A stretch of 64,000 nt of DNA from an uncultured virus (IMG/VR IMGVR_UViG_3300025012_000065) (lineage: Duplodnaviria > Heunggongvirae > Uroviricota > Caudoviricetes), in IMG/VR virus record IMGVR_UViG_3300025012_000065; one strand, 5' to 3'. The notes below the pieces were generated by a model. That model saw only the letters and a list, made by a program, of their open reading frames with translations, searched no databases and was not told where the DNA came from. Below are positions 4,469 through 40,995 of the stretch, piece by piece (position 1 is the stretch's first letter; each line of letters begins with the position of its first letter). The position numbers were made by a program, and so were the translations under genes.

Positions 4469-4494
4469 ATTATAGTGCGTGTTTTGCGCGCGAG
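4469..4494 (-). promoter_or_regulatory. isolated copy of the phage promoter motif, upstream of the nuclease/RNAP operon
   Basis: minus strand CTCGCG-cgcaaaacacgcac-TATAAT (14-nt spacer). Confidence 0.75.
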
Positions 4495-11217: not shown

Positions 11218-11250
11218 ATCTCCGCCCTCTTCTCTCCCCCACTGTCTACC

Positions 11251-11525
11251 TGTTACACTTGTTACGTTTTGAAACACATTTATAAACTTTCTATATATTA
11301 ATTTTTCTCTTATAAAGGTTAGTGATTTTTTTTGTTTTCGTAACAGAAAACCCGCAAAGCCCACTCCCCCTAAGGCTAAGGCCTGTTACACTTTTTTTTA
11401 AAAACGTCACAACTGTCACAAAAACGTCACACTTTTTGCCTTTTTTCGCCCTTTTACACAATTTCTTCAAATATCCAATTTTCAAAAACGTAACAAGTGT
11501 AACAAAAACGTCACACTTTTTTCAC
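11251..11525. repeat. iteron-like direct and inverted repeats flanking an AT-rich tract; candidate replication origin
   Basis: AAAACGT(A/C)ACAA(G/C)TGT(A/C)ACA at 11401 and ~11485, inverted copy at 11251-11272; extra AAAAACGTCACACTTTTT units. Confidence 0.65.
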
Positions 11526-11530
11526 CCATT

Positions 11531-18154: not shown

Positions 18155-18825
18155 ACGATTTCAGCCCCTCCCCCTTCTAAAGACTAATAACATTTATATC
18201 CAAATACCAATCACTAAAGATACCACATGCTCTCTAGACTTAACCATCGCCATTCAAATCCTTTATAAATACAGTGTTACCGATATCGTCCATCGTAAAA
18301 TCCATATACCTACAGAACATATATTTCACCCTAAACATTTGACCCGACACAGCAATCACTTCGCCGTGAATGGTTGCTTCATGGCCATTATAAGGTCGGA
18401 ATACCTTAGCCATAACAAGATCGCCGACTTTACACGGTATCATTATCAATCACTCCTCCGTCAAATGAGATTGTAGATAGTCTTGGCTACATGTTCTGGA
18501 ATCACAATACCATAATCCATATCGAGGATATACAGTACGTCAATTTCCTTACCATTAATATTAGCTTTAACTATAGCCATTACGTTTGCATGATCTGAAC
18601 TACGCTCTTCAATCTCTAATTCGCCAACACATTTACCGGCATCAAACACTAAAATAGTTTTCTTCATTTCAAAGCTCCTTTTCTAAAAGAAGACAGGCCA
18701 AAATAAACATGCAGCCTATCATAATGCCTATACTCATTTCGAAGCCTCCTCAAGATACTAATCTACCCCAACCTATAAACATAAATCGGGGTAGTCCATA
18801 ATATCCTTTCAAAATAAGATTTCCG

Positions 18826-19347
18826 CTATTGCCTGTGCAGATGTTTTAAACTACGACCACACATAGGACAATAATCAATTTTAACCTCAATACCATTGTT
18901 TCCGAACCCATGAACATCATATCCATATGCATTAAGAATGCCAGGATATCTAATACCAATTCCAGAATCATTAGTTTTACCAGTCGTTAAAGCTACTCCG
19001 CCATCACAATATATACATTCTAATTTATCAATCACCTCGTTTGATTCTAATTTAATTTTTCTAACACCACTTCCTCCTACAAGATAAATACGATTAAATT
19101 TATCTTGTACCGCAATACAATACTCGTTTTTATCATATATCTCATCCAGAACATGGTTGTGCACCCCGATGATAGTTAACGGAAATCCCGTTGGTTCAAC
19201 AAAACGTTTATACTGCCAATATGGAGCATACTTAGGATGTTTCTTAATAAATTGACTATACGAATAATATATCAGATCCTGATTTATTATCACTTCGTCG
19301 CCGATATTAAACCCAAGATTTAATTTTTTCACTTCACGTTTGGTCAT
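18826..19347 (-). CDS. hypothetical protein with C-terminal CxxC...CPMCG domain (probable start MTKRE)
   Basis: GGAAGGG RBS; C-terminal domain shared with 15531..16118. Confidence 0.65.
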   Translation of the reverse strand: MTKREVKKLNLGFNIGDEVIINQDLIYYSYSQFIKKHPKYAPYWQYKRFVEPTGFPLTIIGVHNHVLDEIYDKNEYCIAVQDKFNRIYLVGGSGVRKIKLESNEVIDKLECIYCDGGVALTTGKTNDSGIGIRYPGILNAYGYDVHGFGNNGIEVKIDYCPMCGRSLKHLHRQ

Positions 19348-19468
19348 CTTAATTTCCCTTCCTAGGACAACAGTCCACCCCAACCTATAAACACAAATAC
19401 AGGTTAGGGTAGTCCATAATATCCCTCTCAAAATAACCGGACCCGACGGCATTCCAGCCGTCCCGGAG

Positions 19469-26983: not shown

Positions 26984-27009
26984 ATTATATAGCACGTAAT
27001 CTACGCGAC
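26984..27009 (-). promoter_or_regulatory. phage promoter motif copy
   Basis: GTCGCG-N14-TATAAT on the minus strand. Confidence 0.75.
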
Positions 27010-27416
27010 GTTCAGACAATTACGTTTTCCTTCGCTAGGAATAAGGGGACACCCATGAGTATTCCAAAGATGAGACCTGTACCATTCCCATCTATGGATA
27101 CTGATAGCACCCCTGCGCAGACAATAAGTACAGCATACAGCTTGTTAGTAGCCGTCTTAATTGTTAATTTTCGCATGTTTCGGTCCCCTAACATAGTAAT
27201 TGTTAATTACCATAAATATAGGGTTTTTGATAACCGGTTTGCTTGGGGTGACGGCTTTGATTATGCTGATGCCCGAGAATATGGCTACACCTACATGAAC
27301 GGTTTTAACAATAACCTCGCGATTGATGTTTTTGGTGGCGTTTAATGCCCGTTTAACAATAGTTTTCAACATAGTGATTAATCCCCTTTCAAAATATGGT
27401 TGGAAGTCATGAACTT

Positions 27417-27992
27417 TTATTCGTAGTTAGGACTATTGGGCAATGGACACCAATGTGTAACTTTTACTCCGAGCACTTCCTCGAAAGGAGTGATACAACA
27501 ATCAGCATACCATTTGCCATTTCTAAGTTCTGCTACATGTGGGATACCATAATATCCCTCGGGGTCCATCCTACATAATACAAGCACCCAATCGTACGTA
27601 GGAGATTCTGGTAATCTTTCAGTTACTGGAATCCAGGTTCGGTAACTATTAATAGACAGCAATCTACCAACATCTTTATCGGTATGACCATCCCATGGTT
27701 TCCCAAATCCAAGTTCCCGAACATTAAATATGTCCCAATCCTTATCTTTATAGTGATAAGTATATGATCCGTCTGGAGTATCAATCCCAACAATAAACCA
27801 TCCACCACCGAAGCATTCTCGACCATCGGCATGCCTACGAGACTTCCAAGACAGTTCTTCAAAAGCATTAAACAATGCGGCAGATAGAGCAAGTCTTTGG
27901 TCATATAGATCATTAAAAGAGTGATAACCGTCGCTTACTTCCCCGATGGAAATACCATTTTTTTCACATAGGTCTTTTAAAGTTTGTAACAT
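27417..27992 (-). CDS. WDGH-motif domain fused to a DUF551-like domain
   Basis: DGYHSFNDLY...WFIVGI...YHY...WDGHT; WIPVTERLPE...VTHWCPLP. Confidence 0.7.
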   Translation of the reverse strand: MLQTLKDLCEKNGISIGEVSDGYHSFNDLYDQRLALSAALFNAFEELSWKSRRHADGRECFGGGWFIVGIDTPDGSYTYHYKDKDWDIFNVRELGFGKPWDGHTDKDVGRLLSINSYRTWIPVTERLPESPTYDWVLVLCRMDPEGYYGIPHVAELRNGKWYADCCITPFEEVLGVKVTHWCPLPNSPNYE

Positions 27993-28052
27993 GGCGATTA
28001 ACCCCTTTCAAGGCGCCCTGTGGGCGAATTTCGGTTTTACCGTAAATGATGA

Positions 28053-28601
28053 TTAATTACCGATCTTAAATGTCATTTCTGAGTCTTTCTTCTTAGTCAT
28101 ACTGTCGGCTATCGAGCTATAGATCTTGGACACATTCGACAGGCTACCATTGAATTCCTCTAATAATCCATTAAGATTAGCATCAAACTTCTCGACAACA
28201 AGCTCTTTGGCTCTATTTTTGACCTCTTCCCTAAGTTTGTTCATGTCCATGTTGGCCACTTGCCTAGCTACCTCGTCGGTAACTGAAGATCTAACATGCG
28301 AATATGCTGCATCCACGCTAGTTTTAACTTCCTTATGAATATCATTACGGACTGTGGACGTCACGTCATAGGAAATTGATTTGATAGCTTTACCCACTTC
28401 ACGATCCACGGCTCTACTAACTGCCTTCTCAATTATAGCATCGGAAACATTAACGGAAATATCCTTGGATAGTCCATCAGCAGACGATTCAATAACAGCT
28501 AACAATTCATTAACCTTAATGTGTAAATACCTTGTATATGCTGATGCGACTACCCCTACAATACCTACGCCTATGATTCCTACTTTGATTACGTTACTCA
28601 T
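28053..28601 (-). CDS. TM-anchored coiled-coil protein
   Basis: N-terminal hydrophobic helix, long amphipathic helical region. Confidence 0.7.
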   Translation of the reverse strand: MSNVIKVGIIGVGIVGVVASAYTRYLHIKVNELLAVIESSADGLSKDISVNVSDAIIEKAVSRAVDREVGKAIKSISYDVTSTVRNDIHKEVKTSVDAAYSHVRSSVTDEVARQVANMDMNKLREEVKNRAKELVVEKFDANLNGLLEEFNGSLSNVSKIYSSIADSMTKKKDSEMTFKIGN

Positions 28602-28915
28602 GGTGATTAATCCCCTTTTCAAGGCGCCCGGTGGGCGAATTTCGGTTTACCGGTAATGATGACTACTTATTCAAAGATTCCATTTTACGACGGTATAACA
28701 TCTCAAGATCATTACTACTTTGATTGGCTATGAAATTCCGGTTCTTCAATTTCTCAATACGCCATTCCACATATTTAATTCCGACGGCTCCAACTCCGAC
28801 ACATACAACGGCACCAATGGCTACGGTTCTAAAATTAAATGCCAACATAATCATAGTTTCACCTCACTGAAAAATAGGATGCTATGTATTTTACTACATG
28901 CATCCCGTTCAAGAT

Positions 28916-29110
28916 CTACTCTTCTGAGTCGGTTTCAATATCCACGATTTCATTTAAATCTACTTCCACATCCTCAACAACCACTTCATCAGTACCTAGT
29001 TTACCGGCCACTACAACCACTAACGCTATTGCGCCAGTTACTGCTAATGCTCCGTAAACTAATCCTTTTAAAACTCTCGTTTTGTTTGCTTTAATAATAT
29101 TCATAAACAT
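28916..29110 (-). CDS. cassette-encoded small single-pass membrane protein
   Basis: promoter copy at 29143-29168; TM plus acidic tail. Confidence 0.65.
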   Translation of the reverse strand: MFMNIIKANKTRVLKGLVYGALAVTGAIALVVVVAGKLGTDEVVVEDVEVDLNEIVDIETDSEE

Positions 29111-29263
29111 GATATATTCCCACTTTCAAATTTTATTCTTTCATTATAGGGCATGTAATTTTCGCGAGGCTAGGTTACTTTGCTTTTCGAGTTTAACAAT
29201 CGTAGTAGTTCCAAAGGCTGATGCCTCATAACTTAATACATTCTTTTCATAGTGATTAATCCC

Positions 29264-30088
29264 TTAATAACTACGCTCTTGATATCTTGGGGTAACGGTA
29301 AAGTCCAACACGATACATGGCTCGTCATTCTCAGCAAATGCAGTTCCAAATTTAGCTTCGATTAACCCCTTATCATCGGAGTACCAACCCAGCAAATCGC
29401 CCATTTTAATCCCCTTCATGCCAAGACCAATATATACATCGTTTACAGGCATGAATCCTTGCATATCGTTCAATAACTCTCGACTTAGATCGTTAAGCAC
29501 TCGTTCAATTTGTGCCCTGTCACTTCTAAAATATCTTCCTGACAATTCATCATAACAAAGAGTCTCGCCTCTACCTGTGAATACAACTTCACGTTCGCTA
29601 ACCGGATTGACTATAAGTTTATCCTTGTATATTTCTTCTACAACCTCACGCTCCTTACCCTTACCAATGGTTTCAATCACCTTACTCTTATACTGTCTAA
29701 AAGCTGCGTCAGATAATGAATATAACCCCGCCAATGCAGCGTTCCTACGCAGATGGATAGTGTTAGCTCCCACAATACCCCCGATTGTAACCACACCCAT
29801 TATTACGGTTGGAATATAACACTTCCATGTGAGTTTGACAATTTCCAGTTTGGTAATAGGGATTATGGAATAGTGGCCGCTACTCTCTTCACCTTTCTCA
29901 ATACCCTCATCTTCACGACGATATCGTTCCTCGTCAAGAATACGAATAGCCTTAGGTGTTGCCCTTACGGCCATTACTGCAGTACTAAGTAGCCCTGCTA
30001 CACCGAGTATTGTAAGTAAGGTTGGTGAGTTTTTACCAGCTAATGCACCTATGGATCTTGTTGCTTTTTGTATGTTTGCTACGTTCAT
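29264..30088 (-). CDS. membrane-associated phage protein (DUF6353-like), paralogue of 19469..20404
   Basis: KNSPTLLTILGVAGLLSTAVMAVRATPKA; RRNAALAGLY; LGW...CIVLDF. Confidence 0.7.
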   Translation of the reverse strand: MNVANIQKATRSIGALAGKNSPTLLTILGVAGLLSTAVMAVRATPKAIRILDEERYRREDEGIEKGEESSGHYSIIPITKLEIVKLTWKCYIPTVIMGVVTIGGIVGANTIHLRRNAALAGLYSLSDAAFRQYKSKVIETIGKGKEREVVEEIYKDKLIVNPVSEREVVFTGRGETLCYDELSGRYFRSDRAQIERVLNDLSRELLNDMQGFMPVNDVYIGLGMKGIKMGDLLGWYSDDKGLIEAKFGTAFAENDEPCIVLDFTVTPRYQERSY

Positions 30089-30093
30089 TGATA

Positions 30094-30399
30094 TTATTCC
30101 CCCTTCAAAAGTTCAATTTTGCTTAGATGATTATTAATTCGTTCCTGCAATAAAACTATTGCCGATTCCGCATAGGCTATTAAAATTTCCTTTGCTCGAG
30201 CATCATCCCTTTCTTTAAGCCATACCATTGAATTGTATACTATACCTTCTTCGGCAGCACAACCAAGACTTTTAGTTTTGGATTTAAAGGACCCGCGTTT
30301 GTGATATTCATAAACCCGTCCTTCATGAACAGTGAATCTGCCGTTCAATAAAGAATACAAATAGACGTGTTCTTGAAGTAATGGATATGGTCTGGTCAT
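30094..30399 (-). CDS. hypothetical protein
   Basis: AGGAGA RBS. Confidence 0.6.
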   Translation of the reverse strand: MTRPYPLLQEHVYLYSLLNGRFTVHEGRVYEYHKRGSFKSKTKSLGCAAEEGIVYNSMVWLKERDDARAKEILIAYAESAIVLLQERINNHLSKIELLKGE

Positions 30400-30431
30400 T
30401 AGTATTATCTCCTTTCAAAAAATATAATGAA

Positions 30432-30501
30432 AGAATATGTAGGATTCGAACCTACGACACTTAGCTTACACTAATCGCTCTAGCCACTGAGCTAATATTC
30501 T
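30432..30501 (-). ncRNA. tRNA-like RNA (degenerate; 6-nt anticodon loop TGTAAG, no encoded CCA)
   Basis: AGAATAT-TA-GCTC AGTGGCTA GAGC-..TTAG TGTAAG CTAA..-GTAGG TTCGAAT CCTAC-ATATTCT immediately after a promoter copy. Confidence 0.75.
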
Positions 30502-30533
30502 TTCATTATATAGTATGTAATTTTCGCGAGCAT

Positions 30534-30902
30534 TCATCGATACCCATTTTTTTCGTTACGTAATTCCAGTACAACTACAGATCGACATTGGCTTATACTC
30601 AAACCAAACTTCATACCAATATCTTTGTAGGTGTATCCCGAGTCCCGCATTTGTTTAATGGCGATGTTTCGAGTTTTACATTTAGTTGATCCTCGCTCCT
30701 TTGCGTAGTTATGGGCACTCAATGGTTGGGTTATCTTTTCGATTTTTTTGGTGTCACCATTGGCATACATAATTACTCCAAACTTTTTTTCATAATTAGA
30801 TCTGATTTGTAATAGAGTCTTCACAACAGATATTAAATCGTCGTTGGAATCAATCTCCGTTGGGAGTTCCTGTTTTTTTCGATCCAGATAACGCTTCTTC
30901 AT
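30534..30902 (-). CDS. protein with C-terminal HTH (sigma region 4-like)
   Basis: MRDSGYTYKDIGMKFGLSISQCRSVV. Confidence 0.55.
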   Translation of the reverse strand: MKKRYLDRKKQELPTEIDSNDDLISVVKTLLQIRSNYEKKFGVIMYANGDTKKIEKITQPLSAHNYAKERGSTKCKTRNIAIKQMRDSGYTYKDIGMKFGLSISQCRSVVVLELRNEKNGYR

Positions 30903-31052
30903 CTCTAAAACAATAGTCTCCTTCCCAACAGCCCATTAGGGCTTCGACGCACTTACTACAGTCTTTAGGTAATATACCTTTAGTTGGTGATACTTGGCAC
31001 TTTATGAGTTTAGACTTTTTTTTCATTAGTATCCTCCTTAAAATATGAGCAA

Positions 31053-31107
31053 AAAAGAAATGGCTAGGACTTACTCCTAGGTAGACTATTCAAACAGTCC
31101 ACTTCTT
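31053..31107 (-). ncRNA. small two-hairpin cassette RNA
   Basis: promoter, GACTG-TTTGAA-TAGTC and CTAGGA-GTAAG-TCCTAG hairpins, closing stem and T-tract; no RBS/ORF. Confidence 0.6.
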
Positions 31108-31139
31108 TCATTATATAGTGCGTAATTCACGCGAGCAAA

Positions 31140-31214
31140 AAAGAAGTCCAAGCGAGAATTAACTCATTAGGTACTCTTGGATGTCCGTATGTCTAGCATA
31201 TAGAACTCTTCTTT
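31140..31214 (-). ncRNA. small structured cassette RNA
   Basis: promoter; AAGAAG/CTTCTT closing stem, TCCAAG/CTTGGA stem, T-tract; no RBS. Confidence 0.55.
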
Positions 31215-31246
31215 TCATTATATAGTGTGTAATTTTCGCGAGAAAA

Positions 31247-31305
31247 ATAATGGTTATTCAATATACCCGACTTGCGCCGATGGGAATCAAACCCACTAAC
31301 ATTAT
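31247..31305 (-). ncRNA. circularly permuted tRNA-mimic RNA, copy 1
   Basis: ATAAT-GTTA-GTGGG TTTGATT CCCAT-CGGC GCAA GTCG-GGT ATATTGAATA ACC-ATTAT. Confidence 0.75.
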
Positions 31306-31378
31306 CTTTCATTATACAGCATGTAATTTCGCGAGCAAAAAGAAATGCTAAGTTTCCTTAACAACTTCTCTTTATAAG

Positions 31379-31564
31379 TTAATCTTTATCCATACTTAGT
31401 TTCACATGTTCCGCCTTGAATCGTATCTTAATCATAGTTTCTTGGGTCTCTCCATTGTCGCTTGTTGTTGTGCTTGGAATATCAAATTCCATTTCACAGT
31501 TACGTGCTTCGTATAAGACACCTTTTTTTATAATTGCTGATATAATTACATCGGTGATTTTCAT
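31379..31564 (-). CDS. cassette-encoded small protein
   Basis: own promoter (31595-31620), RBS and terminator. Confidence 0.7.
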   Translation of the reverse strand: MKITDVIISAIIKKGVLYEARNCEMEFDIPSTTTSDNGETQETMIKIRFKAEHVKLSMDKD

Positions 31565-31636
31565 ATGCTTTTCCGCCTTTCAAATATAACTTCTATTATA
31601 GCGCATGTATCCTACGCGAGCAAAAAGAATAGAAGC

Positions 31637-31870
31637 TTAATAAGCTTCTATTCTCCCTTTAATTCCAACAAAGCTTAATACTTTTAAATCATATTCTAAT
31701 TTCTTAATAACCGACTTCTTACTGACGAATGTAATTTCAACTGTTCCATCAATCATGAGACATATGTCGATCGTTGTTCCCGATTTCTTATATGTTTCAA
31801 TGAGTTTTGTAACTTTCGAACTATCCCCGTTCAATACTCTTGTGATTACTTTAAATTCCTTAGTAAACAT
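31637..31870 (-). CDS. cassette-encoded small protein
   Basis: own promoter, AGGAGG RBS; stop within the terminator hairpin. Confidence 0.7.
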   Translation of the reverse strand: MFTKEFKVITRVLNGDSSKVTKLIETYKKSGTTIDICLMIDGTVEITFVSKKSVIKKLEYDLKVLSFVGIKGRIEAY

Positions 31871-31927
31871 GCTATATTCCTCCTAAATTTTATTTCTTTC
31901 ACTATATAGCATGTTACGTACGCGAGT

Positions 31928-32398
31928 CTATCGATTAGAATACGGACATCCACCAATGCCTGGATTGTCATCACACACGGGAACGTCATACTTGGCAAAT
32001 AACTTTCGTACACTACAATTACTCGGTAAATCGGAACAATTATTGCAAGCTACCATAGCTTTTTCACATAGATCTAATAAATCTGAAGTCTGGATTGGCG
32101 TGACGCTGTCAAGTTCTAACATTTGCTTATACTCACGTATTGCGTCGTTGCGGTACTTCAAAACAACATCCATTTTCTTAGACTGACTCATTAAATTATC
32201 GGATTCGAGATCATCCAACTGTTCACACTTTATACATAGTGCTCTGAATATAAACGATTTAGCCATTCGAAGGGCTTTGACAGAATCTTTATTGCCTATG
32301 TTCTTAGCCCATTCATCAGCCGTACCAGTTGCATAATCTATGAACGCCGATAAGGTTAAGACCTGGTTCTTCTCTAGTCGATTGAAATATGTTTTCAT
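31928..32398 (-). CDS. hypothetical protein with Cys-rich C-terminus (DUF5651-like)
   Basis: GGAGG RBS; CxxC...C...VP...CPY. Confidence 0.65.
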   Translation of the reverse strand: MKTYFNRLEKNQVLTLSAFIDYATGTADEWAKNIGNKDSVKALRMAKSFIFRALCIKCEQLDDLESDNLMSQSKKMDVVLKYRNDAIREYKQMLELDSVTPIQTSDLLDLCEKAMVACNNCSDLPSNCSVRKLFAKYDVPVCDDNPGIGGCPYSNR

Positions 32399-32502
32399 CG
32401 TACGCCTCCTCCTACTCTATACACGGTATAGTAACGGTCCAATGTGAAGCCACGGGTACATAGTATATAATACCACCTCCACGCGAGCAAAAGAGAAAAG
32501 GA

Positions 32503-32652
32503 TCAGCCCTCAAGGAGCTTTTCCAATTCATCTACTTGTTCCGTAAATCGCTTTTTAAATTCTTCAAATGTCAGCGAACAGGCTTCCGATTCGATAAAGG
32601 TTCTCAATTTTATAAGTACCTCATCTATTTCTTCAACCGTAATCTTTTTCAT
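32503..32652 (-). CDS. cassette-encoded 49-aa acidic helical protein (below the ORF-track cutoff)
   Basis: promoter, AAGGAGG RBS, MKKITVEEIDEVLIKL...EKLLEG*. Confidence 0.65.
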   Translation of the reverse strand: MKKITVEEIDEVLIKLRTFIESEACSLTFEEFKKRFTEQVDELEKLLEG

Positions 32653-32730
32653 AATAAAACCTCCTTCAATTTACTTTCATTATACGGTATGTACCTAACG
32701 CGAGCAGAAAGAGAGAGACTAAGTCTCTCA

Positions 32731-32952
32731 TCAGTTTCCTAATAAAGTCTCTAACTCTCTCATAGCTCTTTCAAATCTTCTTGTGGCTTCCCCTCCTGTA
32801 TATGTATCCGCGTCAGTACCAATGCGTTCGTGCCAGGTTATTGCTTCGGACGATACCATATAAATGTCATTTACAATGTCATTTTCATAATTTTCGTCTA
32901 TCATCTTTAACCGATACTTCATATTGATCTTCGTAACTTCTATCATATCCAT
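32731..32952 (-). CDS. cassette-encoded small protein
   Basis: promoter, GAGGAGG RBS, GAGAGAC-TTA-GTCTCTC terminator. Confidence 0.7.
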   Translation of the reverse strand: MDMIEVTKINMKYRLKMIDENYENDIVNDIYMVSSEAITWHERIGTDADTYTGGEATRRFERAMRELETLLGN

Positions 32953-33013
32953 AATAAAGGCCTCCTCAAATTTATTTTCATTATGGAGTATGTAACTAAC
33001 GCGAGTAATATGT

Positions 33014-33607
33014 CTACTTAATTTGCCAAAACACTATATCTCTTTTTTTTGTACCCACTTGCATTGGATATTTTGTGATTTCCAGCAATTTGTCAAATAA
33101 ATCGTAATTATATAGAGTTAACAAATCTCGTCTAATACATAATTTATTTATGCCATATCGCTTATTAAACACGTTCCAAAGATGAATGCCTTCCGACAAA
33201 TTCCCAGAACATGATAACAATGACACGGGATGTCTATACATATGCCTCAACGGTATTTTTAAATCCGAAGCTTCAAATATAAAGTCTCCATTCTTTTTAA
33301 TTTTAGCAACCATGTTATACTTTTGAAACTTATCGTATTGAATAGCGTTACTTATAATAAGTTTATATTGTTTACCCTGTGCCTCATCCCAGATCAAATC
33401 TAAATATTCATTATCTTGCTCTTTTGCCTTGTCAAATACATAAAAAGGCAGGTCTTCGGATATGTATTTATGATCTGTTCTTATGGTGCACAATCCAAAC
33501 TTATCTATCAGATCCACGTACTCATCATATGTTTCGGGTATGTAAAATTGATGAATATTCAAATTTAATTCCATAATGCGATTAAGACTTTGAATTTTAT
33601 CGAACAT
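33014..33607 (-). CDS. AT-rich hypothetical protein
   Basis: 197-aa ORF, GGGGGG RBS. Confidence 0.6.
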   Translation of the reverse strand: MFDKIQSLNRIMELNLNIHQFYIPETYDEYVDLIDKFGLCTIRTDHKYISEDLPFYVFDKAKEQDNEYLDLIWDEAQGKQYKLIISNAIQYDKFQKYNMVAKIKKNGDFIFEASDLKIPLRHMYRHPVSLLSCSGNLSEGIHLWNVFNKRYGINKLCIRRDLLTLYNYDLFDKLLEITKYPMQVGTKKRDIVFWQIK

Positions 33608-33646
33608 GTTATACCCCCCATATATCCATTGTGAGAAAAAGAAAAC

Positions 33647-33832
33647 CTAAGCTTTCTCTGGTATAAGAGTTAAATGTTTATTGGACTTAAAGTTTATTTT
33701 GAATTCTTTAATTCCGTTTTGATGAGCAATATTGGTTACTAAATCCATAAGATAGTCTAATGATATAGTAACTCCTTCTCTACTCTCTAATTCAGCAACT
33801 AGTTCTTCGGTTGATATTTTTGATAAATCCAT
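33647..33832 (-). CDS. cassette-encoded small protein
   Basis: promoter, AAGGAG RBS; DLSKISTEELVAELESREGV. Confidence 0.7.
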   Translation of the reverse strand: MDLSKISTEELVAELESREGVTISLDYLMDLVTNIAHQNGIKEFKINFKSNKHLTLIPEKA

Positions 33833-33906
33833 AATTACTCAACTCCTTTCATTATATCGCATGTATCCATCGCGACCAAAAAGAAAGCCTAAACTTTCTC
33901 TCCTTT

Positions 33907-34137
33907 CTATAAAAGTGGTTTGTTTAGTATTGTTCTGATACTGGATTCGTTTATAAACATATTTTTGCTAATTTCGACATTAGACAGTCCTATACTCTTT
34001 AGTCTGGTTGCCTTGGCGTAAAGATCATTCATTAATTCCTCTTCGCCCTGACACGCTATACTTCTTAGTTTAGTTACTGTAATACCCATTCTTTTAGCAA
34101 CGTCTGCTTCACTTACTTCCAATGTACGTTCAATCAT
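33907..34137 (-). CDS. stand-alone double-HTH protein homologous to the N-terminus of the putative RNA polymerase
   Basis: ATRLKSIGLSNVEISKNMFINESSIRTIL vs ANRLKAKGYSNVEIGKRMGGRNESSVRSLL. Confidence 0.8.
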   Translation of the reverse strand: MIERTLEVSEADVAKRMGITVTKLRSIACQGEEELMNDLYAKATRLKSIGLSNVEISKNMFINESSIRTILNKPLL

Positions 34138-34252
34138 ATTAAACACACGCCTTTCACTTTCATTATAAAGCATGTTATGTACGCGAGGTCTACCGATAAC
34201 AGCCTACTACGCAGAACCGGCAAAAAGAAAGCCTAAGCTTTCTCCGCTAGAC

Positions 34253-34582
34253 CTATAATTCTACCTCATGGTAATTTCCGTTATCGAGATCACTCATTGT
34301 TGCGAGGAACGCTTCGGATACCGTAATATCACTATTAACCGGTAAATCTAACGTCCATCCAATACCTGAGCCTTGCTCGTTTCCTTGAAACCAATGAATA
34401 GAATAATCAGGTTCCTTTGCGGGAATCTCTACGACTTCTTCTTCTTTCTTAGTGTTTAGGCCAATTGTTATTAGAGCTAAAACCCCCATTCCAACGATAA
34501 TCCCAGCTGCTATGACCTTTTCTTTGTGGTTGTTCCACAAGACCTTAGCCTGTTCTTTCACTGATAATTTGTTTTTAATCAT
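34253..34582 (-). CDS. cassette-encoded single-pass membrane protein
   Basis: promoter at 34603-34628; TM VIAAGIIVGMGVLALITIGL. Confidence 0.7.
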   Translation of the reverse strand: MIKNKLSVKEQAKVLWNNHKEKVIAAGIIVGMGVLALITIGLNTKKEEEVVEIPAKEPDYSIHWFQGNEQGSGIGWTLDLPVNSDITVSEAFLATMSDLDNGNYHEVEL

Positions 34583-34781
34583 AATACAAATACCTCACTT
34601 TCATTATGACGTATGTAACAGTCGCGATCCTATCGATCCTCCGTTCGCATGATTAATGTGAATATAGCGGTGGCTCTAGCCTTAAGTTCCTCATTCGTAA
34701 GGTCTGATAGTAATTCGATACATAAACGATCATGTTCGGCATATAGCTCGGCATAGGTCATGGTATAAGAATCTTTCGTCA

Positions 34782-35081
34782 TCACACGTCCTCCACCAAC
34801 ACTAATGTTTTTCTGTTAACGGCATAAGACATATACTTTAAAACACGTTGTTTCTTCCGCTGTATTAAATTATCATTATCAAGAATAGGAATAAGACATT
34901 CTTCTTTAAGCATTTCAAATACCCCAAGAAGATCTCCAAACTCAATAGCGATTTTTTCAGCAGTATTAATATCACTCTTCCATTTATCATCAAGGCCAAA
35001 TCGTAAAGCTTTTGCGGCTTCTTTTTGAATTTCTGAACATTCTTCAATTAAACAGGTTAATAAATGTTCGGTTTTATTCAT
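34782..35081 (-). CDS. MazG-like NTP pyrophosphohydrolase
   Basis: LIEECSEIQKEAAKALRFG...EFGDLLGV. Confidence 0.65.
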   Translation of the reverse strand: MNKTEHLLTCLIEECSEIQKEAAKALRFGLDDKWKSDINTAEKIAIEFGDLLGVFEMLKEECLIPILDNDNLIQRKKQRVLKYMSYAVNRKTLVLVEDV

Positions 35082-35323
35082 AATATCCTCCTTATTAATT
35101 TTTAGACTTAGACATTAACCTAAAGTACTATTCGTTAACCCCATATACAAATATCCAATTCTCTGCACGAGTCTCATAATATACACGATCGTCCACACGT
35201 ACGTCAAAGTACTTAATTCCGTTTTTTTCATAGACGGCCACTACAATTCCACTAAACTCGTTGTTGATATTTTTTACCTCATCTTGATAGCCTGGTAATG
35301 TTACACTCATAGTTATACTCCTC

Positions 35324-35857
35324 CTAAATGCCTTTTATTTTGCATGCTATCATATCTGCCATGTGGGAATACAGAACATTCGGATAACGATCAATGGCTC
35401 TACCATAATATGCCCATTTATTGGTATCTTTTTCATAAGAACCCATATGCCATCTTATACACGCTACTTCTTCGTCCGTAAGATCCATATATTTTTGAAG
35501 GTATATAACCGACTTCTCCCCATGACCATCAATAAGGAGTTGATCATTGTACTTATATGGATGTTCCCCATCGGGCGTTTTGATATAGTTGTCAATTTTA
35601 CATAGATCATGGAATAACCCAACGATCAACGGTGATTCTGGACGTTGCCATTTCAAGCCCATACCTATTGTTAGTTTCTGTAACGTGTCATAAACCTCGT
35701 AGCTGTGGTCAAATAACCCGCCCTCGTAACTTCCATGACGCTTCGTACTTGCTGGTGCGGTTAGGAATTCGGCTATTGGGAATTTACCATTCGTGAGAAC
35801 TCCTAGTTTACCATAAGTTAAAGCTCTAAATTTGTCATATCTATCATCGAAATTCAC
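35324..35857 (-). CDS. HD-domain phosphohydrolase
   Basis: APASTKRH..EGGLFDHS, LFHDLCK, GHGEKS, IRWHMG, ADM. Confidence 0.85.
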   Translation of the reverse strand: MNFDDRYDKFRALTYGKLGVLTNGKFPIAEFLTAPASTKRHGSYEGGLFDHSYEVYDTLQKLTIGMGLKWQRPESPLIVGLFHDLCKIDNYIKTPDGEHPYKYNDQLLIDGHGEKSVIYLQKYMDLTDEEVACIRWHMGSYEKDTNKWAYYGRAIDRYPNVLYSHMADMIACKIKGI

Positions 35858-35859
35858 AA

Positions 35860-36096
35860 TTACACCTCCTTCCTTAGAATATGATTCCGGAATTCATGAT
35901 CATCACTTATTTCACTAGCGCGTAATATTTGTAGCGTCATCCAAGTGGCGATATAACCCTTTTGGTTTAGATATTTCTTACCTTCGGTGACATCCATTTT
36001 CCACATAACGCCAACGACTTCTCTAGGGGCATTCGTTATTAAGACATTATGTGCATCATATATGAAGGCTCTACAACTATCTAAGTCTCCCTGCAT
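35860..36096 (-). CDS. hypothetical protein, paralogue of 37513..37707
   Basis: AFIYD.HNVLITNAPREVV.VMW..DVTEG.K.L.QKGY.ATWMTLQ shared. Confidence 0.7.
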   Translation of the reverse strand: MQGDLDSCRAFIYDAHNVLITNAPREVVGVMWKMDVTEGKKYLNQKGYIATWMTLQILRASEISDDHEFRNHILRKEV

Positions 36097-36099
36097 TAA

Positions 36100-36522
36100 T
36101 TACACCTCTTTCCTTAAAATATGGTTCCACAACACGCCTTTGATATAAACATTTTTAATACCAGCGTTGACAATCATTCGACGGCACATAAAGCAGGGTT
36201 CGTCCGTAACATAAATATCCGCACCATCAATCGATATACCATGTCTCGCGGCTTGAATGATTGCATTTGCTTCAGCGTGCACACTTTTGCATAATTCGTA
36301 ACGTTCGCCGGGTTTAACCCTTAGTCGTTCACGCTCACACACCACACAGTGCGCTTCACCCATAGGGGTTCCATTATATCCACTACTTAATATTAGTCTA
36401 TCTTTCACGATTATAGCACCCACGTTACGACGTAAACACGTTGATCTAGTCGCCACTGTCTTAGCAAGTAATGCAAAGTATTCACTCCATGATGGTCTAG
36501 TCAAGTTTACGCACCTTCTCAC
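36100..36522 (-). CDS. dCMP deaminase
   Basis: RSTCLRRNVGA, SGYNG, HAEANAI, PCFMC. Confidence 0.9.
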   Translation of the reverse strand: MRRCVNLTRPSWSEYFALLAKTVATRSTCLRRNVGAIIVKDRLILSSGYNGTPMGEAHCVVCERERLRVKPGERYELCKSVHAEANAIIQAARHGISIDGADIYVTDEPCFMCRRMIVNAGIKNVYIKGVLWNHILRKEV

Positions 36523-37516
36523 TAGTAATTGGATTTATCAGATATACGTCTCCCATATTTTCTCTTATCCATTGAATTTTATCATCCGATGGTATTGGTC
36601 CATATTTATCCTCGACGAGCTTAATAAGATTTATCAGATATACGTCTCCCATATTTTCTCTTATCCATTGAATTTTATCATCCGATGGTATTGGTCCATA
36701 TTTATCCTCGATGAGCTTAATAAGATTTATAGACATCCCTCCATATTTACGATTTGTTTCAATTTCACCCAACATGCTTTTTAAATTAGAAACATGTTTG
36801 TCGACACCATCTAACATTTTTAATGTTTTCTGATTAGACTCTTCTCCATTAAGGTTTTCTTCTCTCATCAATATGTCATTATTTTTCTTAATGATCCCCT
36901 TTCTTAAATCAAAATTAAATAGAGATCGTTCGGGCTTAGATCTTGATGGAATATCCTGTAATTCAGGATGCTTTTCTTCTATCCACATAGCACCAATAAT
37001 ATTCCACGCAGCAGCAACAAGATGATCCTCGTCCGTCTGCCCATCAACACATTTTAATAGATGTCGAATTCCACTATCTATAAAACTACTAATCGGAAGA
37101 CCTTTTTCCCAATTTCTCGGGGCATATTTTACTGCGCCAGCCTCATAATGCTTCGAAAGACGTAATAATGCACATGCTGGATATGATGAATATTTTGGAA
37201 TATCTATTGATTTTTTTTCTTCCATATACATGGCATCTATTAAATCACATGCGGCCGCGCAAAGATGATCATGATTTGTTTCGCCATCTAGATAAAACAT
37301 CAATCGGATCAACGAATCATCCAACATAGAGCAAAACGATACATTATCGTTAAGTCTTCTGGCATTAGCCCGATATTGAGATATTCTCAATAGAGCCGCC
37401 GCCGGTAATAGATCACATCGACCCTTACCTTCACTCATATCACGTACGGCACCACTTTCAAATTCTCGTCTATCGCCACTGTCTTTTAACATAGTATAAA
37501 CATCTCTCTTTCTCAA
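36497..37516 (-). CDS. DUF5664-like dATP/dGTP diphosphohydrolase domain protein with C-terminal tandem repeat
   Basis: KDSG.R.EFESGAVRD...KGRCDLLP; HYEAGAVKYAPRNWEKG...RHL...EDHLVAAAWN. Confidence 0.75.
   Translation of the reverse strand: MRKRDVYTMLKDSGDRREFESGAVRDMSEGKGRCDLLPAAALLRISQYRANARRLNDNVSFCSMLDDSLIRLMFYLDGETNHDHLCAAACDLIDAMYMEEKKSIDIPKYSSYPACALLRLSKHYEAGAVKYAPRNWEKGLPISSFIDSGIRHLLKCVDGQTDEDHLVAAAWNIIGAMWIEEKHPELQDIPSRSKPERSLFNFDLRKGIIKKNNDILMREENLNGEESNQKTLKMLDGVDKHVSNLKSMLGEIETNRKYGGMSINLIKLIEDKYGPIPSDDKIQWIRENMGDVYLINLIKLVEDKYGPIPSDDKIQWIRENMGDVYLINPITSEKVRKLD
36532..36730. repeat. near-perfect 96-bp tandem duplication (32 aa)
   Basis: INLIKL(I/V)EDKYGPIPSDDKIQWIRENMGDVYL x2. 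Confidence 0.95.
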
Positions 37517-37707
37517 ACTACTTCACTGGAACGTAATCGTTGTAAGGTCATCCACGTAGCCACATAACCTTTTTGTGTTAGATTTTTCAAACCTTCGGTA
37601 ACGTCTAAATGCCACATAACCGCAACAACTTCCCTAGGCGCATTGGTTATCAAGACGTTATGCTCGTCATATATGAATGCCTTACACTTATCTAAATCTT
37701 CTTGCAT
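37513..37707 (-). CDS. hypothetical protein, paralogue of 35860..36096
   Basis: high similarity; AGGAGA RBS. Confidence 0.7.
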   Translation of the reverse strand: MQEDLDKCKAFIYDEHNVLITNAPREVVAVMWHLDVTEGLKNLTQKGYVATWMTLQRLRSSEVV

Positions 37708-37983
37708 GGCAATATCTCCTTTCTTAAACTTAGAATATAAATTACTAATGTGGCATAGAACATAGCATCAGATACATTGTTCCCGTAAAACTGAAGTTAG
37801 TGTTGGTCGAATTTGTAACTTCTCTCCAAGTTCTCTTTTCGAAGAAATTCACATCTCACATTTTAGACCCTATCTTTTTATTAACGAGTTAACCCGATAT
37901 AACAACGATCATAGCCGCTACGCCCATCAAAACACCTGTAAAATATACTGGTTCCTTCTTTCAAAATATGGCTTAGTGAGAAA

Positions 37984-38077
37984 AAAGAAATAGCTGTACG
38001 TAGGTCCGGTTTGACTCTTAATCTTCATCTCCTACTGTTATCGCCAGGGACTTAATGCCCTATACTCGCTTATTCTT
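37984..38077 (-). ncRNA. structured cassette RNA (~95 nt)
   Basis: promoter; AGGG/CCCT hairpin, GTAGG/CCTAC stem, closing stem, T-tract. Confidence 0.55.
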
Positions 38078-38119
38078 TCATTATATAGTATGTAATTTTC
38101 GCGAGCAAAAAGAAAGAGT

Positions 38120-38272
38120 CTAAGCTCTCTCAGATTCAATTGCTTCTGTAACAACATTATCGCTCAGCGTAAGATAGACATAGTCCTTTGGATTAGGACC
38201 TTCTCTGAATATGGCGAACGTTTCATTGTTATCGGCATTTAAGTCTAAGAGTTCTTTAACTCTTTCTAAATT
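38120..38272 (-). pseudogene. 5'-truncated cassette ORF lacking RBS/start
   Basis: open frame ...ERVKELLDLN...IESERA* ends in the terminator loop; no in-frame ATG with an RBS after the promoter. Confidence 0.5.
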
Positions 38273-38316
38273 TATTTCATTATAGAATATGTTACGTACG
38301 CGAGCAAAAAGAAAGC

Positions 38317-38508
38317 CTAAGCTTCCTCCTTATCAATAAGTTTATTAATAATATGGGCTTTTATATCATTCAGTTCTGTAGCACTTGGTATCGAATTTCC
38401 GTCCTCATCCAAAACTTCCATTTTAAAGTTTTCAATTTTAAATTGTTTTGCGTTCTCGATATTTACATCAATTAGTACCTCTGCTACTGCTACGATTTTT
38501 ACTTTCAT
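38317..38508 (-). CDS. cassette-encoded small protein ending EEA*
   Basis: AGGAGG RBS; stop in the repeat hairpin. Confidence 0.7.
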   Translation of the reverse strand: MKVKIVAVAEVLIDVNIENAKQFKIENFKMEVLDEDGNSIPSATELNDIKAHIINKLIDKEEA

Positions 38509-38606
38509 GATAATCCTCCTTATTTTATAAATTTCTTTCATTATATGGAATGTAATTCACGCGAGGTCTCATGACAACCATCTACTACACAGAATGGGCT
38601 AGAAGG

Positions 38607-38671
38607 GAAGATGTGTACATGGATATTCTCCCGTACGTATCAGTCTACTATTTTCGACTAATATCATCTTC
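38607..38671 (-). ncRNA. three-way-junction cassette RNA
   Basis: GAAGATG/CATCTTC closing stem; TATTAGTC/GACTGATA and GTAC.GG/CC..GTAC hairpins, directly after a promoter. Confidence 0.65.
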
Positions 38672-38710
38672 TATTATAGAGTAGGTTACGTACGCGAGCA
38701 GAAAGAAAGC

Positions 38711-38917
38711 CTAAGCTTCCTCTACGTCTGATATAATTTTAGCGGCGATAATTGTTCCAATTATTAATCCTGCTGTAGCGCTTATAAACGCGCACGCAAA
38801 CCCCTTCCACCAACCTTCATCAAAGCACTTCTTTTTTAATTGTTGTACTTCAAATTCGTTTGTTGGAATAGTCTCACATTCCTCTGTTTGTAGGTGATGC
38901 ATTCTTATCATTTTCAT
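38711..38917 (-). CDS. cassette-encoded small membrane protein ending EEA*
   Basis: AAGGAG RBS; C-terminal TM. Confidence 0.7.
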   Translation of the reverse strand: MKMIRMHHLQTEECETIPTNEFEVQQLKKKCFDEGWWKGFACAFISATAGLIIGTIIAAKIISDVEEA

Positions 38918-38995
38918 AATATCAATCTCCTTTAAATTTATTTCATTATATAGCAGGTTATCCACGCGAGCAGAAAGAAAGCCTAAGCTTCCTTC

Positions 38996-39259
38996 TCACA
39001 TTAAGGTCTTAAATCCTTCGTAAATTATTTCTGTCATTTTTTGTTGAACTTTAAAATTCTGATAATCCTGTTCTCTACCTTGGCAGCATAATACGTACAC
39101 CTTTGATACTAGTGATCCATCTGAATCTGAAACTACTTCCGACTCTCTCAAGTCGAGTACTTTAAATTCATTGGCTCTAAGTATCCTGGTTACACTTATT
39201 ACTGCCTTTTCTAACAACTGAGTTATCACTCTAAATTCAATTATTTTAGTCATAATCAT
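38996..39259 (-). CDS. cassette-encoded small protein
   Basis: promoter, AGGAGG RBS. Confidence 0.7.
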   Translation of the reverse strand: MIMTKIIEFRVITQLLEKAVISVTRILRANEFKVLDLRESEVVSDSDGSLVSKVYVLCCQGREQDYQNFKVQQKMTEIIYEGFKTLM

Positions 39260-39321
39260 TCCTCCTATATTTTGCTTAATGTCATTATGGTGTATGCAAA
39301 TATCGCGAGCAGAAAGAAAGC

Positions 39322-39555
39322 CTAAGCTTCCTCGATGTTTTCTGCTACTTCGTAGAATTTCCCATCGATTTCAATTATGCTTCCATCTTTTAAACCTTGT
39401 TTAATTTTCTTGTTGAATTTCACTTCGTTAATAACATTGCCAACTCCAACAGCAACATGCCCTATAGCACTAAATGCAATTCCAACTACTGCTGGCACTA
39501 CTACTAATACTACAAAACCCATTACTGCTAGGTCTACGATATCTTTATCTTTCAT
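39322..39555 (-). CDS. cassette-encoded small membrane protein ending EEA*
   Basis: promoter, RBS, long hydrophobic segment. Confidence 0.7.
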   Translation of the reverse strand: MKDKDIVDLAVMGFVVLVVVPAVVGIAFSAIGHVAVGVGNVINEVKFNKKIKQGLKDGSIIEIDGKFYEVAENIEEA

Positions 39556-39628
39556 GATAATTCCTTCTTTCAAATTAAATTTATTTCATTATAGAATATG
39601 TTACGTACGCGAGCAAAAAGAAAGAAAC

Positions 39629-39757
39629 CTATTTGGCTTCTCCCCATGTCAATACCTTGGATGTTTCGTTAGCTATTACTATACTCGCCATTGCTACTAC
39701 CATTACTAAAGAAACTCCAGCGAGTCCTCCTAAAATAGTTTTTGCAATATTCTTCAT
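39629..39757 (-). CDS. cassette-encoded 42-aa membrane peptide
   Basis: MKNIAKTILGGLAGVSLVMVVAMASIVIANETSKVLTWGEAK*; GAGGG RBS. Confidence 0.6.
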   Translation of the reverse strand: MKNIAKTILGGLAGVSLVMVVAMASIVIANETSKVLTWGEAK

Positions 39758-39878
39758 AATAAATTCCCTCTTTCAAGTTTATTTTCATTATATAGCACGT
39801 AATTCACGCGAGCAAAAAAAGAAACCTAAGTTCCTTCATTATGCTATTTAGTGATTTGTAATATACTCGTTCATTGTA

Positions 39879-40013
39879 TTATTTCATATTTACTGCGTTG
39901 TTACGTCTGTGATTCACTACTACCGTTGCTATTATCGCAAAGGCTACAATCAATCCTGCTGTAATTCCTACAGTAGTCATGGTTAATGCTACTTGTTGAA
40001 CTTTAATATACAT
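39879..40013 (-). CDS. cassette-encoded 44-aa membrane peptide
   Basis: MYIKVQQVALTMTTVGITAGLIVAFAIIATVVVNHRRNNAVNMK*; AAGGAG RBS. Confidence 0.6.
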   Translation of the reverse strand: MYIKVQQVALTMTTVGITAGLIVAFAIIATVVVNHRRNNAVNMK

Positions 40014-40083
40014 ATTAATCGCTCCTTTTATTTACATAATTCTTCTATTATATAATGCATAATGGACGCGAGCAAAAAAAAAA

Positions 40084-40142
40084 ATAATGGCAATCCAATT
40101 AACCCAGTTTTCACTGATGGGAATCGAACCCACTAACATTAT
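40084..40142 (-). ncRNA. circularly permuted tRNA-mimic RNA, copy 2
   Basis: ATAAT-GTTA-GTGGG TTCGATT CCCAT-CAGT GAAA ACTG-GGT TAATTGGATT GCC-ATTAT. Confidence 0.75.
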
Positions 40143-40214
40143 CTTTCATTATATAATGTGTAATTCACGCGAGGTATGATAACCACTATCTGTCACGCAG
40201 AACGAGCAAAAAAA

Positions 40215-40288
40215 AGAAGCGACGGGTTCGAACCGCATTTCTCTGGTAGATATACCAGCGCTTTAACTTTTAAGCTAAATTTTCTTCT
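40215..40288 (-). ncRNA. degenerate tRNA-like RNA
   Basis: D arm GCTT..AAGC, CTGGT-ATATCT-ACCAG arm, GCGG TTCGAAC CCGT T arm, weak acceptor stem, no CCA. Confidence 0.65.
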
Positions 40289-40329
40289 TTCATTATGTAG
40301 TATGTAATACACGCGAGCAGAAAGAAAGC

Positions 40330-40491
40330 CTAAGCTTCCCTCCCGACAATGTCATGAATAATCGGTCTTTTGTTTTTAACATTCATTGTATCTATTATGT
40401 CGAATATCTTTTTGTTAGCATCTTTTCGTCCTTGCCAGTAACATGTACCAGCAATCGTCAAACCTACAATCAATAACCATAATGTTTTCAT
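40330..40491 (-). CDS. cassette-encoded 53-aa membrane peptide ending EA*
   Basis: MKTLWLLIVGLTIAGTCYWQGRK...IVGREA*; AAGGAG RBS. Confidence 0.65.
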   Translation of the reverse strand: MKTLWLLIVGLTIAGTCYWQGRKDANKKIFDIIDTMNVKNKRPIIHDIVGREA

Positions 40492-40578
40492 AATGTTAAT
40501 CTCCTTTCAAAATTATCATAACACTTTCATTATAGTATATGTTTTGGATGCGAATCGAGCAAAAAGAGAAGGCATGTT

Positions 40579-40872
40579 TTACACACGCCCCTTAATGATA
40601 AACCCTAACGCTTTCGTAGTTATTACTCCAGCTTGTTCAAATCCCAATATCAGTGCTATGCCCAATAGATTACCTGCTATGATCAGAATCGTGTCTTTCT
40701 TTATTTTCTGTTCGCGTTTTATCGCGTCCATTTTATAAAGCTTTTCAAGATTATCGGTCATATTTTTGTATTCCGCTGAGTCTGGCTGATGTTGTTTCAT
40801 AATTTCCAAGACTGCTGCAATTTCTGCTTCAAGCGCCGTTTGTTTATTCTTTTTGGTGAATTTCTTAAACAT
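40579..40872 (-). CDS. cassette-encoded protein with C-terminal TM
   Basis: first cassette of the array; AGGAGA RBS. Confidence 0.7.
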   Translation of the reverse strand: MFKKFTKKNKQTALEAEIAAVLEIMKQHQPDSAEYKNMTDNLEKLYKMDAIKREQKIKKDTILIIAGNLLGIALILGFEQAGVITTKALGFIIKGRV

Positions 40873-40995
40873 TTGCGTTCTCTCCTTCAAGATTTTATTC
40901 TTTCATTATAGCGTGAGTTATTTCCGCGAAGGAATCATCAACAATGGATTTTCGTAAACCTTGGAATTTTTACCGTCAATTATAATGTCGGTACA

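Follow-up and report, generated by a model that had tools for sequence, protein, structure and literature searches.

A 76-residue protein encoded in the small-gene array of an uncultured tailed phage is, by homology, a member of the N-terminal helix-turn-helix (HTH) module of the predicted single-chain RNA polymerases of the phage 1706 family, carried here as a free gene. The same DNA, a window of 64,000 nucleotides that is the whole stretch analyzed, encodes one such polymerase in a predicted protein of 954 residues, and the small protein aligns colinearly with both HTH units of its N-terminal region. The reading that we favor, at a probability of roughly 40%, is that the free module binds what the polymerase's resident HTH pair binds, probably the TCGCG and TTACAT blocks of the array promoters, and in doing so damps or times the polymerase at these promoters.

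Most of the genome of a siphovirus-like phage is covered by the window; every gene in it lies on the minus strand, and the gene of the 954-residue protein is the last large one. The features relevant to the argument are collected in Table 1. Several other elements were observed in the same DNA. In the gap before the DNA polymerase/primase gene (11365-11530), a GTGACGTTTTTGT(T/G)ACA-like word occurs four times, in two pairs; the gap is a candidate origin or operator. An element of about 60 bases, GA(A/G)AGG(G/A)ATATTATGGACTACCC...TTTATAGGTTGGGGT, is common to the intergenic stretches 18668-18845 and 18972-19468, upstream of small ORFs. Two small genes (35860-36096 and 37513-37707), which are 78% identical over 63 residues, flank a dCMP deaminase gene and a gene of 339 residues, and the latter (region 36497-37516) contains an exact internal repeat, LINLIKL(I/V)EDKYGPIPSDDKIQWIRENMGDVY, twice.

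Table 1. Coordinates of the features discussed in the text, with the evidence on which each assignment rests.
Feature	Position	Strand	Evidence
Tail genes	from 63.8 kb down	minus	
Holin and endolysin	41.6-42.6 kb	minus	
Small-gene array of about 26 promoter(-terminator) cassettes and one tRNA, home of the 76-residue protein gene	26984..40928	minus	
Terminator hairpin of the preceding cassette (gene 34253-34582), upstream border	34226..34243	minus	
Array-type promoter of the 76-residue protein gene, CGCG-N4-TAACATGC-N3-TATAAT, then GAAAG	34162..34185	minus	matrix score 41.3
Stand-alone double-HTH coding sequence, 76 aa	33910..34137 (stop codon 33907-33909)	minus	BLASTP, PHROG profile, AlphaFold2, dN/dS
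Terminator-like hairpin (AGAAAGTTTAGGCTTTCT) and U-run closing the cassette	33877..33899	minus	RNA fold
DNA polymerase/primase	7312-11364	minus	replication genes, with helicase and exonuclease
Weaker promoter copy, upstream of the block ending in the exonuclease and polymerase genes	4469..4492	minus	matrix score 35.6
Part of the polymerase gene encoding residues 44-109, the resident N-terminal double HTH	3028..3225	minus	alignment with the 76-residue protein
954-residue protein, phage 1706/PHROG 4291 family of predicted YonO-like single-chain RNA polymerases	490..3354	minus	PHROG profile, GADFDGD

The longest ORF at the locus (33907-34173) would encode 88 residues, and a second ATG, at 34137, gives 76 residues and the stop codon. 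The second ATG is taken as the right start because the array promoter covers the upstream one and the orthologues have 76 and 81 residues; the 88-residue reading from the first ATG was rejected on the same grounds. The original prediction had credited the gene with a CGCG promoter of its own, which is indeed present (CGCGTACATAACATGCTTTATAATG, read from 34185 to 34162) and ranks 18th by array-matrix score among the 28 matches in the window. The leader that follows contains a Shine-Dalgarno-like GAAAGG. On the 3' side of the stop codon, RNA folding gives a hairpin from 33899 to 33882 with -12.1 kcal/mol (z -2.87), and the next array promoter begins at 33874, after this terminator. Promoter, leader, ORF, and terminator make the gene a closed unit, which lies about 30 kb from the polymerase gene.

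Pairwise BLASTP aligns residues 20-84 of the 88-residue form with residues 44-109 of the 954-residue protein (27 of 68 positions identical, 43 of 68 positive, E 2e-9), which bears out the earlier claim of a stand-alone copy nearly colinear with about residues 44-108. When the 93 ORFs of the window were compared all against all by BLASTP, the ORF of the small gene was the only match to the 954-residue protein (E 1.7e-8). Positions 48-115 of the PHROG 4291 profile match residues 17-84 of the small ORF (E 2.4e-9), and an orthologue on a JGI metagenome contig (L133) independently matches residues 40-109 of the 954-residue protein (24 of 70 identical, E 4e-9). Significant colinear similarity by BLASTP, profile, and alignment thus spans both HTH units of the polymerase module. 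Twenty-seven positions are conserved in at least 70% of 23 polymerase modules, and 15 of them are retained in the free copy, among them A14, G18, L24, R25, N63, S65, S66, R68, and L71. These lie in or beside the two second helices, whose most conserved residues (TxTxLR and NESSxRxxL) are kept as in the polymerases; the other 12 positions are altered, for example KGY to IGL, G61F, and R36M. The net charge is +1, compared to +8 for the resident polymerase module and +3.4 on average in the family.

In alignments of the family, conservation is strong over the first ~135 residues of the polymerases, which contain, one after another, the motif hydrophobic-x-H-Y-G..R.SGRYPWGSG.NPYQ, a helix, HTH1 (G.S..EIA...G.TTTQLR), a long helix, and HTH2 (KGYS..EIA..MG..NESSVRSLL). 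The 76-residue protein begins just before the second helix of HTH1 and ends directly after HTH2, with clean domain borders. It differs from the polymerase N-terminal region in being free-standing, in its own cassette and in a clade of its own, and in lacking three parts: the tag motif (hydrophobic-x-H-Y-G...SGRYxWGSG), whose SGRYxWGSG core occurs in the window only in the 954-residue protein, the first helix of HTH1, and the polymerase body, in place of which a stop codon and terminator follow residue 76.

An AlphaFold2 model of the protein, built from an alignment of 25 sequences, has a pLDDT of 80.5 (below 50 for residues 1-5) and helices at residues 10-16, 21-48, 53-60, and 64-72. HTH2 is complete in this model, being formed by the end of helix 21-48 together with helices 53-60 and 64-72, and HTH1 consists only of helix 10-16 and the helix from residue 21 onward. 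Residues 30-76 superpose on DNA-bound HTHs, best on the DeoR DNA-binding domain with its operator (Z 6.7, rmsd 1.2 Å over 47 residues), followed by SorC (Z 5.5), ParB (Z 5.3), and KorB (within Z 5.1-5.5), all values below 8 and hence in a range that may reflect a common arrangement only. What sets the protein apart from the tri-helical HTHs of DeoR/SorC, ParB/KorB, resolvase, and sigma region 4 is its tandem layout, joined by a single 28-residue helix. Foldseek with the model returned nothing at E ≤ 0.001. The scores of the protein in Pfam and NCBIfam all fall below the curated cut-offs (Sigma70_r4_2 18.8 bits against 25.7, GerE 15.3 against 23.5), and the weak matches are all to HTH families. 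The double HTH of the original prediction therefore holds in outline, through the helices of the model and the DeoR superposition, although HTH1 is without its first helix.

The 954-residue protein has an N-terminal tag motif, the HTH pair, a core with GADFDGD, and a C-terminal sigma-4-like HTH. The profile phrog_4291 covers residues 2-953 with positions 9-905 of its 909 (E 0, 1188.6 bits), and GADFDGD, of the DxDGD type that forms the catalytic, metal-binding loop in two-barrel polymerases, occupies residues 544-550 and is invariant in 24 aligned sequences. Of 250 matching cultured phage records, 249 align over at least 80% of the query. The cultured homologues, from phages of Arthrobacter, Gordonia, Streptomyces, Lactococcus, Faecalibacterium, and others, share 37-51% identity with it and are nearly always encoded by the last large gene; a PHROG 4291-type polymerase is also present in 139 IMG/VR stretches. 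Above its thresholds, Pfam reports sigma-70 region-4-like HTHs at residues 910-952 and HTH_11 and HTH_28 at 348-377, and no HTH in the N-terminal pair; NCBIfam sigma matches occur as well, and Pfam detected no DUF7211 in the first 45 or 151 residues. Sequence and profile searches of the PDB returned no polymerase, and an Atlas feature search pointed to a cluster (score 0.87) in which 60% of the members carry PF05183, which is a lead only.

Ruprich-Robert and Thuriaux (2010, PMC2919709) set the phage 1706 family apart among YonO-like proteins. Its members appear as the "phage 1706 ORF75" family of putative RNA polymerases with HTHs at both ends in Koert et al. (bioRxiv 10.1101/842583), where the DxDGD motif is remarked upon too. 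DNA-dependent RNA synthesis has been demonstrated only for YonO of SPbeta, a distant relative, and the same study treats it as an open question how YonO finds promoters without a sigma factor (PMC5467207). The literature yielded no published biochemical test of the phage-1706 polymerase family. Because of family membership, the invariant GADFDGD loop, and the published HHpred work, we regard "polymerase" as a well-founded prediction for the 954-residue protein. The homologue in Lactococcus phage 1706, orf75 (L135, EU081845.1 52082-55171), was entered by its depositors as a "structural protein", the ReqiPepy6 record (L120, GU580941.1) echoes this note, and RefSeq renames orf75 an RNA-dependent RNA polymerase (RdRP). 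There are thus hints that polymerases of this type are packed in the virion, and a polymerase delivered with the DNA, which would be the first to fire the array promoters, fits the annotation of orf75 as a structural protein.

The pattern CGCG-N14-TATAAT, with at most one mismatch, has 28 matches on the minus strand of the window versus 2 on the plus strand. One match inside an ORF (33130) was left out, and the remaining 27 give the consensus CTCGCG-N4-TTACATAC-N3-TATAATGAAAG; 26 of these copies lie in the array (26984-40928) and one at 4492. Array promoters at 40148-40236, 38040-38080, 31070-31133, and 31180-31217 have no convincing ORF after them, and two of these ORF-less promoters are followed by strings resembling a tRNA T-arm (GGTTCGATTCC near 40120-40148 and GCGGTTCGAACCCGTCGC at 40219-40236). 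ARAGORN and Rfam recognize only one tRNA in the window, Leu-TAA at 30429-30502, and the ORF-less promoters possibly belong to small-RNA cassettes.

A 27-base form of the promoter, TCGCR-N4-WWACAY-N5-TATARTGA, accompanies the PHROG 4291 polymerase in both Firmicute-type and actinobacterial phages, is specific to this lineage, keeps its spacing, and always lies on the coding strand. It is present in six of eight cultured relatives (Scap1 4 copies, Circum 9, Duffington 7, ReqiPepy6 16, DrGrey 11, Pippin15 2, FP_oengus and P078 0), with 49 forward and 0 reverse copies and 0 for a reversed-pattern control. All 12 further records have it (85 forward, 0 reverse; controls 3 forward, 1 reverse), as do all 11 IMG/VR genomes examined, with the lineage variants TATTATG, TATAGTG, CGCA, and CGTA. 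Exact-pattern scans of IMG/VR returned 0 and 3 stretches; as they passed over relatives in which variants are known to occur, they carry no information. In actinophages, conservation continues into the leader GAGACCCCTAcGAAAGGA (TATARTGAgaccccTAcGAAAGGA), and neither a conserved sequence upstream of TCGC nor a -35 element was found. A sigma-70-type two-hexamer scan of the array gave 52 sites, compared to 55.6 expected; it called one of the 26 array copies of the motif with its own TATAAT as the -10 element and made no call on the promoter of the 76-residue protein gene. Since the motif is kept across hosts of 30-60+% GC in two phyla, and no -35 element goes with it, its reader is expected to be encoded by the phage, with the polymerase as the obvious candidate. 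These comparisons suggest that the promoter is probably read by the phage polymerase. TATAAT equals the -10 consensus of host sigma-A, and the host polymerase may use the array promoters. The literature on phage-1706-type phages contained, as far as we found, no described promoter of the TCGCR type and no free HTH copy.

The free module recurs in other lineages. A 76-residue protein in ENA (P0004) is 78% identical to it, and the orthologue on contig L133 (GC 30.6%), of 81 residues, is identical at 38 of 75 positions (51%). The latter has its own promoter of the array type (CGCGtcaaTAACATatacTATAATGAAA) and a terminator hairpin, and it belongs to a denser array, with 20 promoter copies in 8.2 kb and six genes in common with the window. 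Between the window and L133, dN/dS is 0.29 (pN 0.319, pS 0.64, with dS near saturation). As the frame has been kept in three lineages down to 51% identity, with this dN/dS and a complete cassette, the 76-residue protein gene is, on these comparisons, a working gene under purifying selection. In a tree of 34 modules with an unresolved backbone, the three free copies group together (99/98) on a stem of 1.03, as a clade that is not sister to the resident polymerase, and they have conserved strings of their own, DVAKRMGITV and ESSIRTILN. Given this long-stemmed clade and its position, the free copy is, as far as the phylogeny can tell, an old paralogue and not a recent partial duplication.

The free copy is rare. 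A search of 20 related IMG/VR records with the 76-residue query at E ≤ 0.01 found it in none: 19 had one match each, always inside a frame of 890-937 residues, and one had no match. In cultured phages, 155 records have 158 places matching the protein; among the 85 matches listed, the real ones all lie under the polymerase gene, and three extra places fall outside that set. Thirty matches in Acinetobacter phages, in tape-measure genes at E 0.4-1, were rejected as chance, and a search of viral contigs gave only a partial match of 17 residues. A profile search limited to proteins of 36-147 residues gave 76 matches. Polymerase fragments account for 73 of these, recognizable in 57 cases by the tag motif and in 16 by 46-95% identity to the N-termini of polymerases; the other three (P0003, P0004, and P0071) are free-standing by appearance. 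This rarity in relatives implies that the free copy is not a core part of the circuit.

Two groups of short relatives were observed beside the three-copy clade. P0071 is a divergent protein of 112 residues on a 5.3-kb Logan contig, with two HTHs by Pfam and N- and C-terminal extensions of its own; it sits on a long separate branch, as a second, apparently free kind of double-HTH relative, and was possibly detached independently. P0017, P0032, and P0042, on Logan contigs of 1-3 kb, are three different 91-residue proteins with 75-88% identity to the N-termini of polymerases; each begins at the methionine of HTH1, and all three stop at the same position directly behind the HTH pair. They may reflect split polymerase genes or an artefact of gene calling common to all three.

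In the mechanism that we propose, the 76-residue protein would be a functional small DNA-binding protein that arose by ancient detachment of the N-terminal HTH pair of a single-chain polymerase and that is transcribed from the same type of promoter as the rest of the array. It would bind the DNA element contacted by the polymerase's own N-terminal pair, presumably the conserved upstream half of the promoter, where TCGCG and TTACAT have their centres one helical turn apart. Occupancy of these sites would lower or time the use of the promoters by the polymerase, since the protein is without the catalytic body, and would thereby exert negative feedback on the cassette promoters, its own included. 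Four steps of this mechanism are our inference: the phage polymerase is the reader of the promoters, its N-terminal pair contributes to reading them, the free copy recognizes the same DNA, and the effect is negative. In a more specific version, which we consider doubtful, the free module would imitate in trans the head with which a virion-delivered polymerase reads its promoters; the module would be made from the early promoters of that enzyme and would shut them by occupancy.

A part of the N-terminal pair in promoter reading is a premise of this mechanism. When the HTH2 helix (NESS, PESS, GESS, NDSS, or NEST) was compared with the fifth base of promoter block 1 (CGCG or CGCA), no covariation signal emerged: early lineages had been suggestive, but the pattern broke down once eleven more cultured phages were added. 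A NESS helix is paired with CGCG in the window, G013, G020, Circum, and contig89 but with CGCA in Pippin15, Eevee, Argan, Synepsis, and Phaby, and Damascus and Camille combine PESS with CGCG. Judging from the profile matches, the C-terminal sigma-4-like HTH and the internal HTH of the polymerase are candidates for the promoter reader at least as good as the N-terminal pair. The original prediction of a detached promoter-recognition module has therefore come through in its first half, as the gene is a detached, separately transcribed, and selected paralogue, whereas the premise of promoter recognition is weakened by the null result for covariation and the absence of a Pfam HTH above threshold in the N-terminal pair. 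The rarity of the free copy, its trimmed and less basic HTH1, and the location of the sigma-4-like matches elsewhere in the polymerase (910-952) also speak against a competitor.

The foremost alternative is a small phage regulator of the usual HTH type that has come to recognize a separate target, for example another phage operator, host genes, or the repeats before the DNA polymerase gene, in which case the likeness to the polymerase would be a matter of history. The long stem of the clade and its separation from the resident polymerase, the clade-specific strings, the 12 altered positions out of 27, and the presence of other repeated intergenic elements in the window are all compatible with such a regulator. 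However, the residues that were kept are those most conserved in the two second helices of the polymerases, no separate repeated site is associated with the 76-residue protein gene, and its promoter is a typical array copy. We therefore judge this alternative unlikely, though it deserves to be taken seriously. Distinctly unlikely, in our view, is a positive trans-acting factor, which might help in the manner of a sigma factor, by marking promoters or by passing them on to a polymerase, for example newly made or host enzyme, or might shift promoter choice in the phages that carry it. In favor of such a factor, the protein has the enzyme's own module, its expression goes with that of the array, and other non-canonical phage polymerases are reported to use separate specificity subunits. 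Yet the resident polymerase retains its own module, relatives manage without a free copy, and no second promoter class tied to the gene was found in the window.

The free copy might also act at the protein level, as a decoy that titrates a docking partner of the N-terminal pair, be it the polymerase core, the head or portal in packaging, a host factor, or a defence sensor. The annotation of the phage 1706 homologue as a virion protein implies that the N-terminal region may serve packaging, the charge of the free copy is lower than that of the resident module, and without the tag motif the free copy would stay in the cell. All the structural and profile matches are nevertheless to DNA-binding HTH domains, and the conserved surface-exposed residues that were kept sit in the would-be recognition helices, so we rate a decoy as very unlikely. 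A non-functional remnant of a recombination event that placed a copy of a polymerase gene's 5' part in the array deserves next to no credence: 73 of the 76 short database matches are indeed polymerase fragments, but decay was rejected in view of the orthologues with an intact frame down to 51% identity, the dN/dS, the clade support, the clean domain borders, and the gene's own promoter, Shine-Dalgarno-like leader, and terminator.

A competitor of the kind that we favor would have a parallel in IS1, where InsA, a product consisting only of the DNA-binding domain, competes with the full-length transposase InsAB'. The proposed logic is similar in that a short HTH protein would occupy the sites of an enzyme and damp its activity. 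In the phage, however, the enzyme is a predicted RNA polymerase, the short form has a gene to itself that diverged long ago, instead of being made from the enzyme's gene as a second product, and the sharing of sites is presumed. Phage-made negative regulators of a phage's own RNA polymerase are known from T7, whose lysozyme (gp3.5) binds the enzyme and is unrelated to it. Both are small phage proteins, and the 76-residue protein, likewise proposed to feed back on a phage polymerase, differs in being a paralogue of the enzyme's DNA-binding part that would act at the DNA.

What is new here is the existence of the polymerase N-terminal HTH module as a free gene copy, with an inferred function and in a narrow carrier lineage. 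Standing under the presumed promoter of the enzyme, the free module is a small and easily made handle on the question of whether the N-terminal module reads the promoter and, if so, which block. If it binds elsewhere, it would be one more small phage HTH regulator, albeit of unusual ancestry. Should the enzyme indeed travel in the virion, it would have the array as its early regulon, with the free module among the first products. If, moreover, the module is a mimic of the polymerase's promoter-reading head, it would be the first case in a phage of a "micro-protein" switch derived from a polymerase and a natural reagent for establishing which part of the polymerase reads the cross-phylum promoter. 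As a competitor, it would provide the phage with a simple timing device for early transcription, and it may become a tool for switching these polymerases off.
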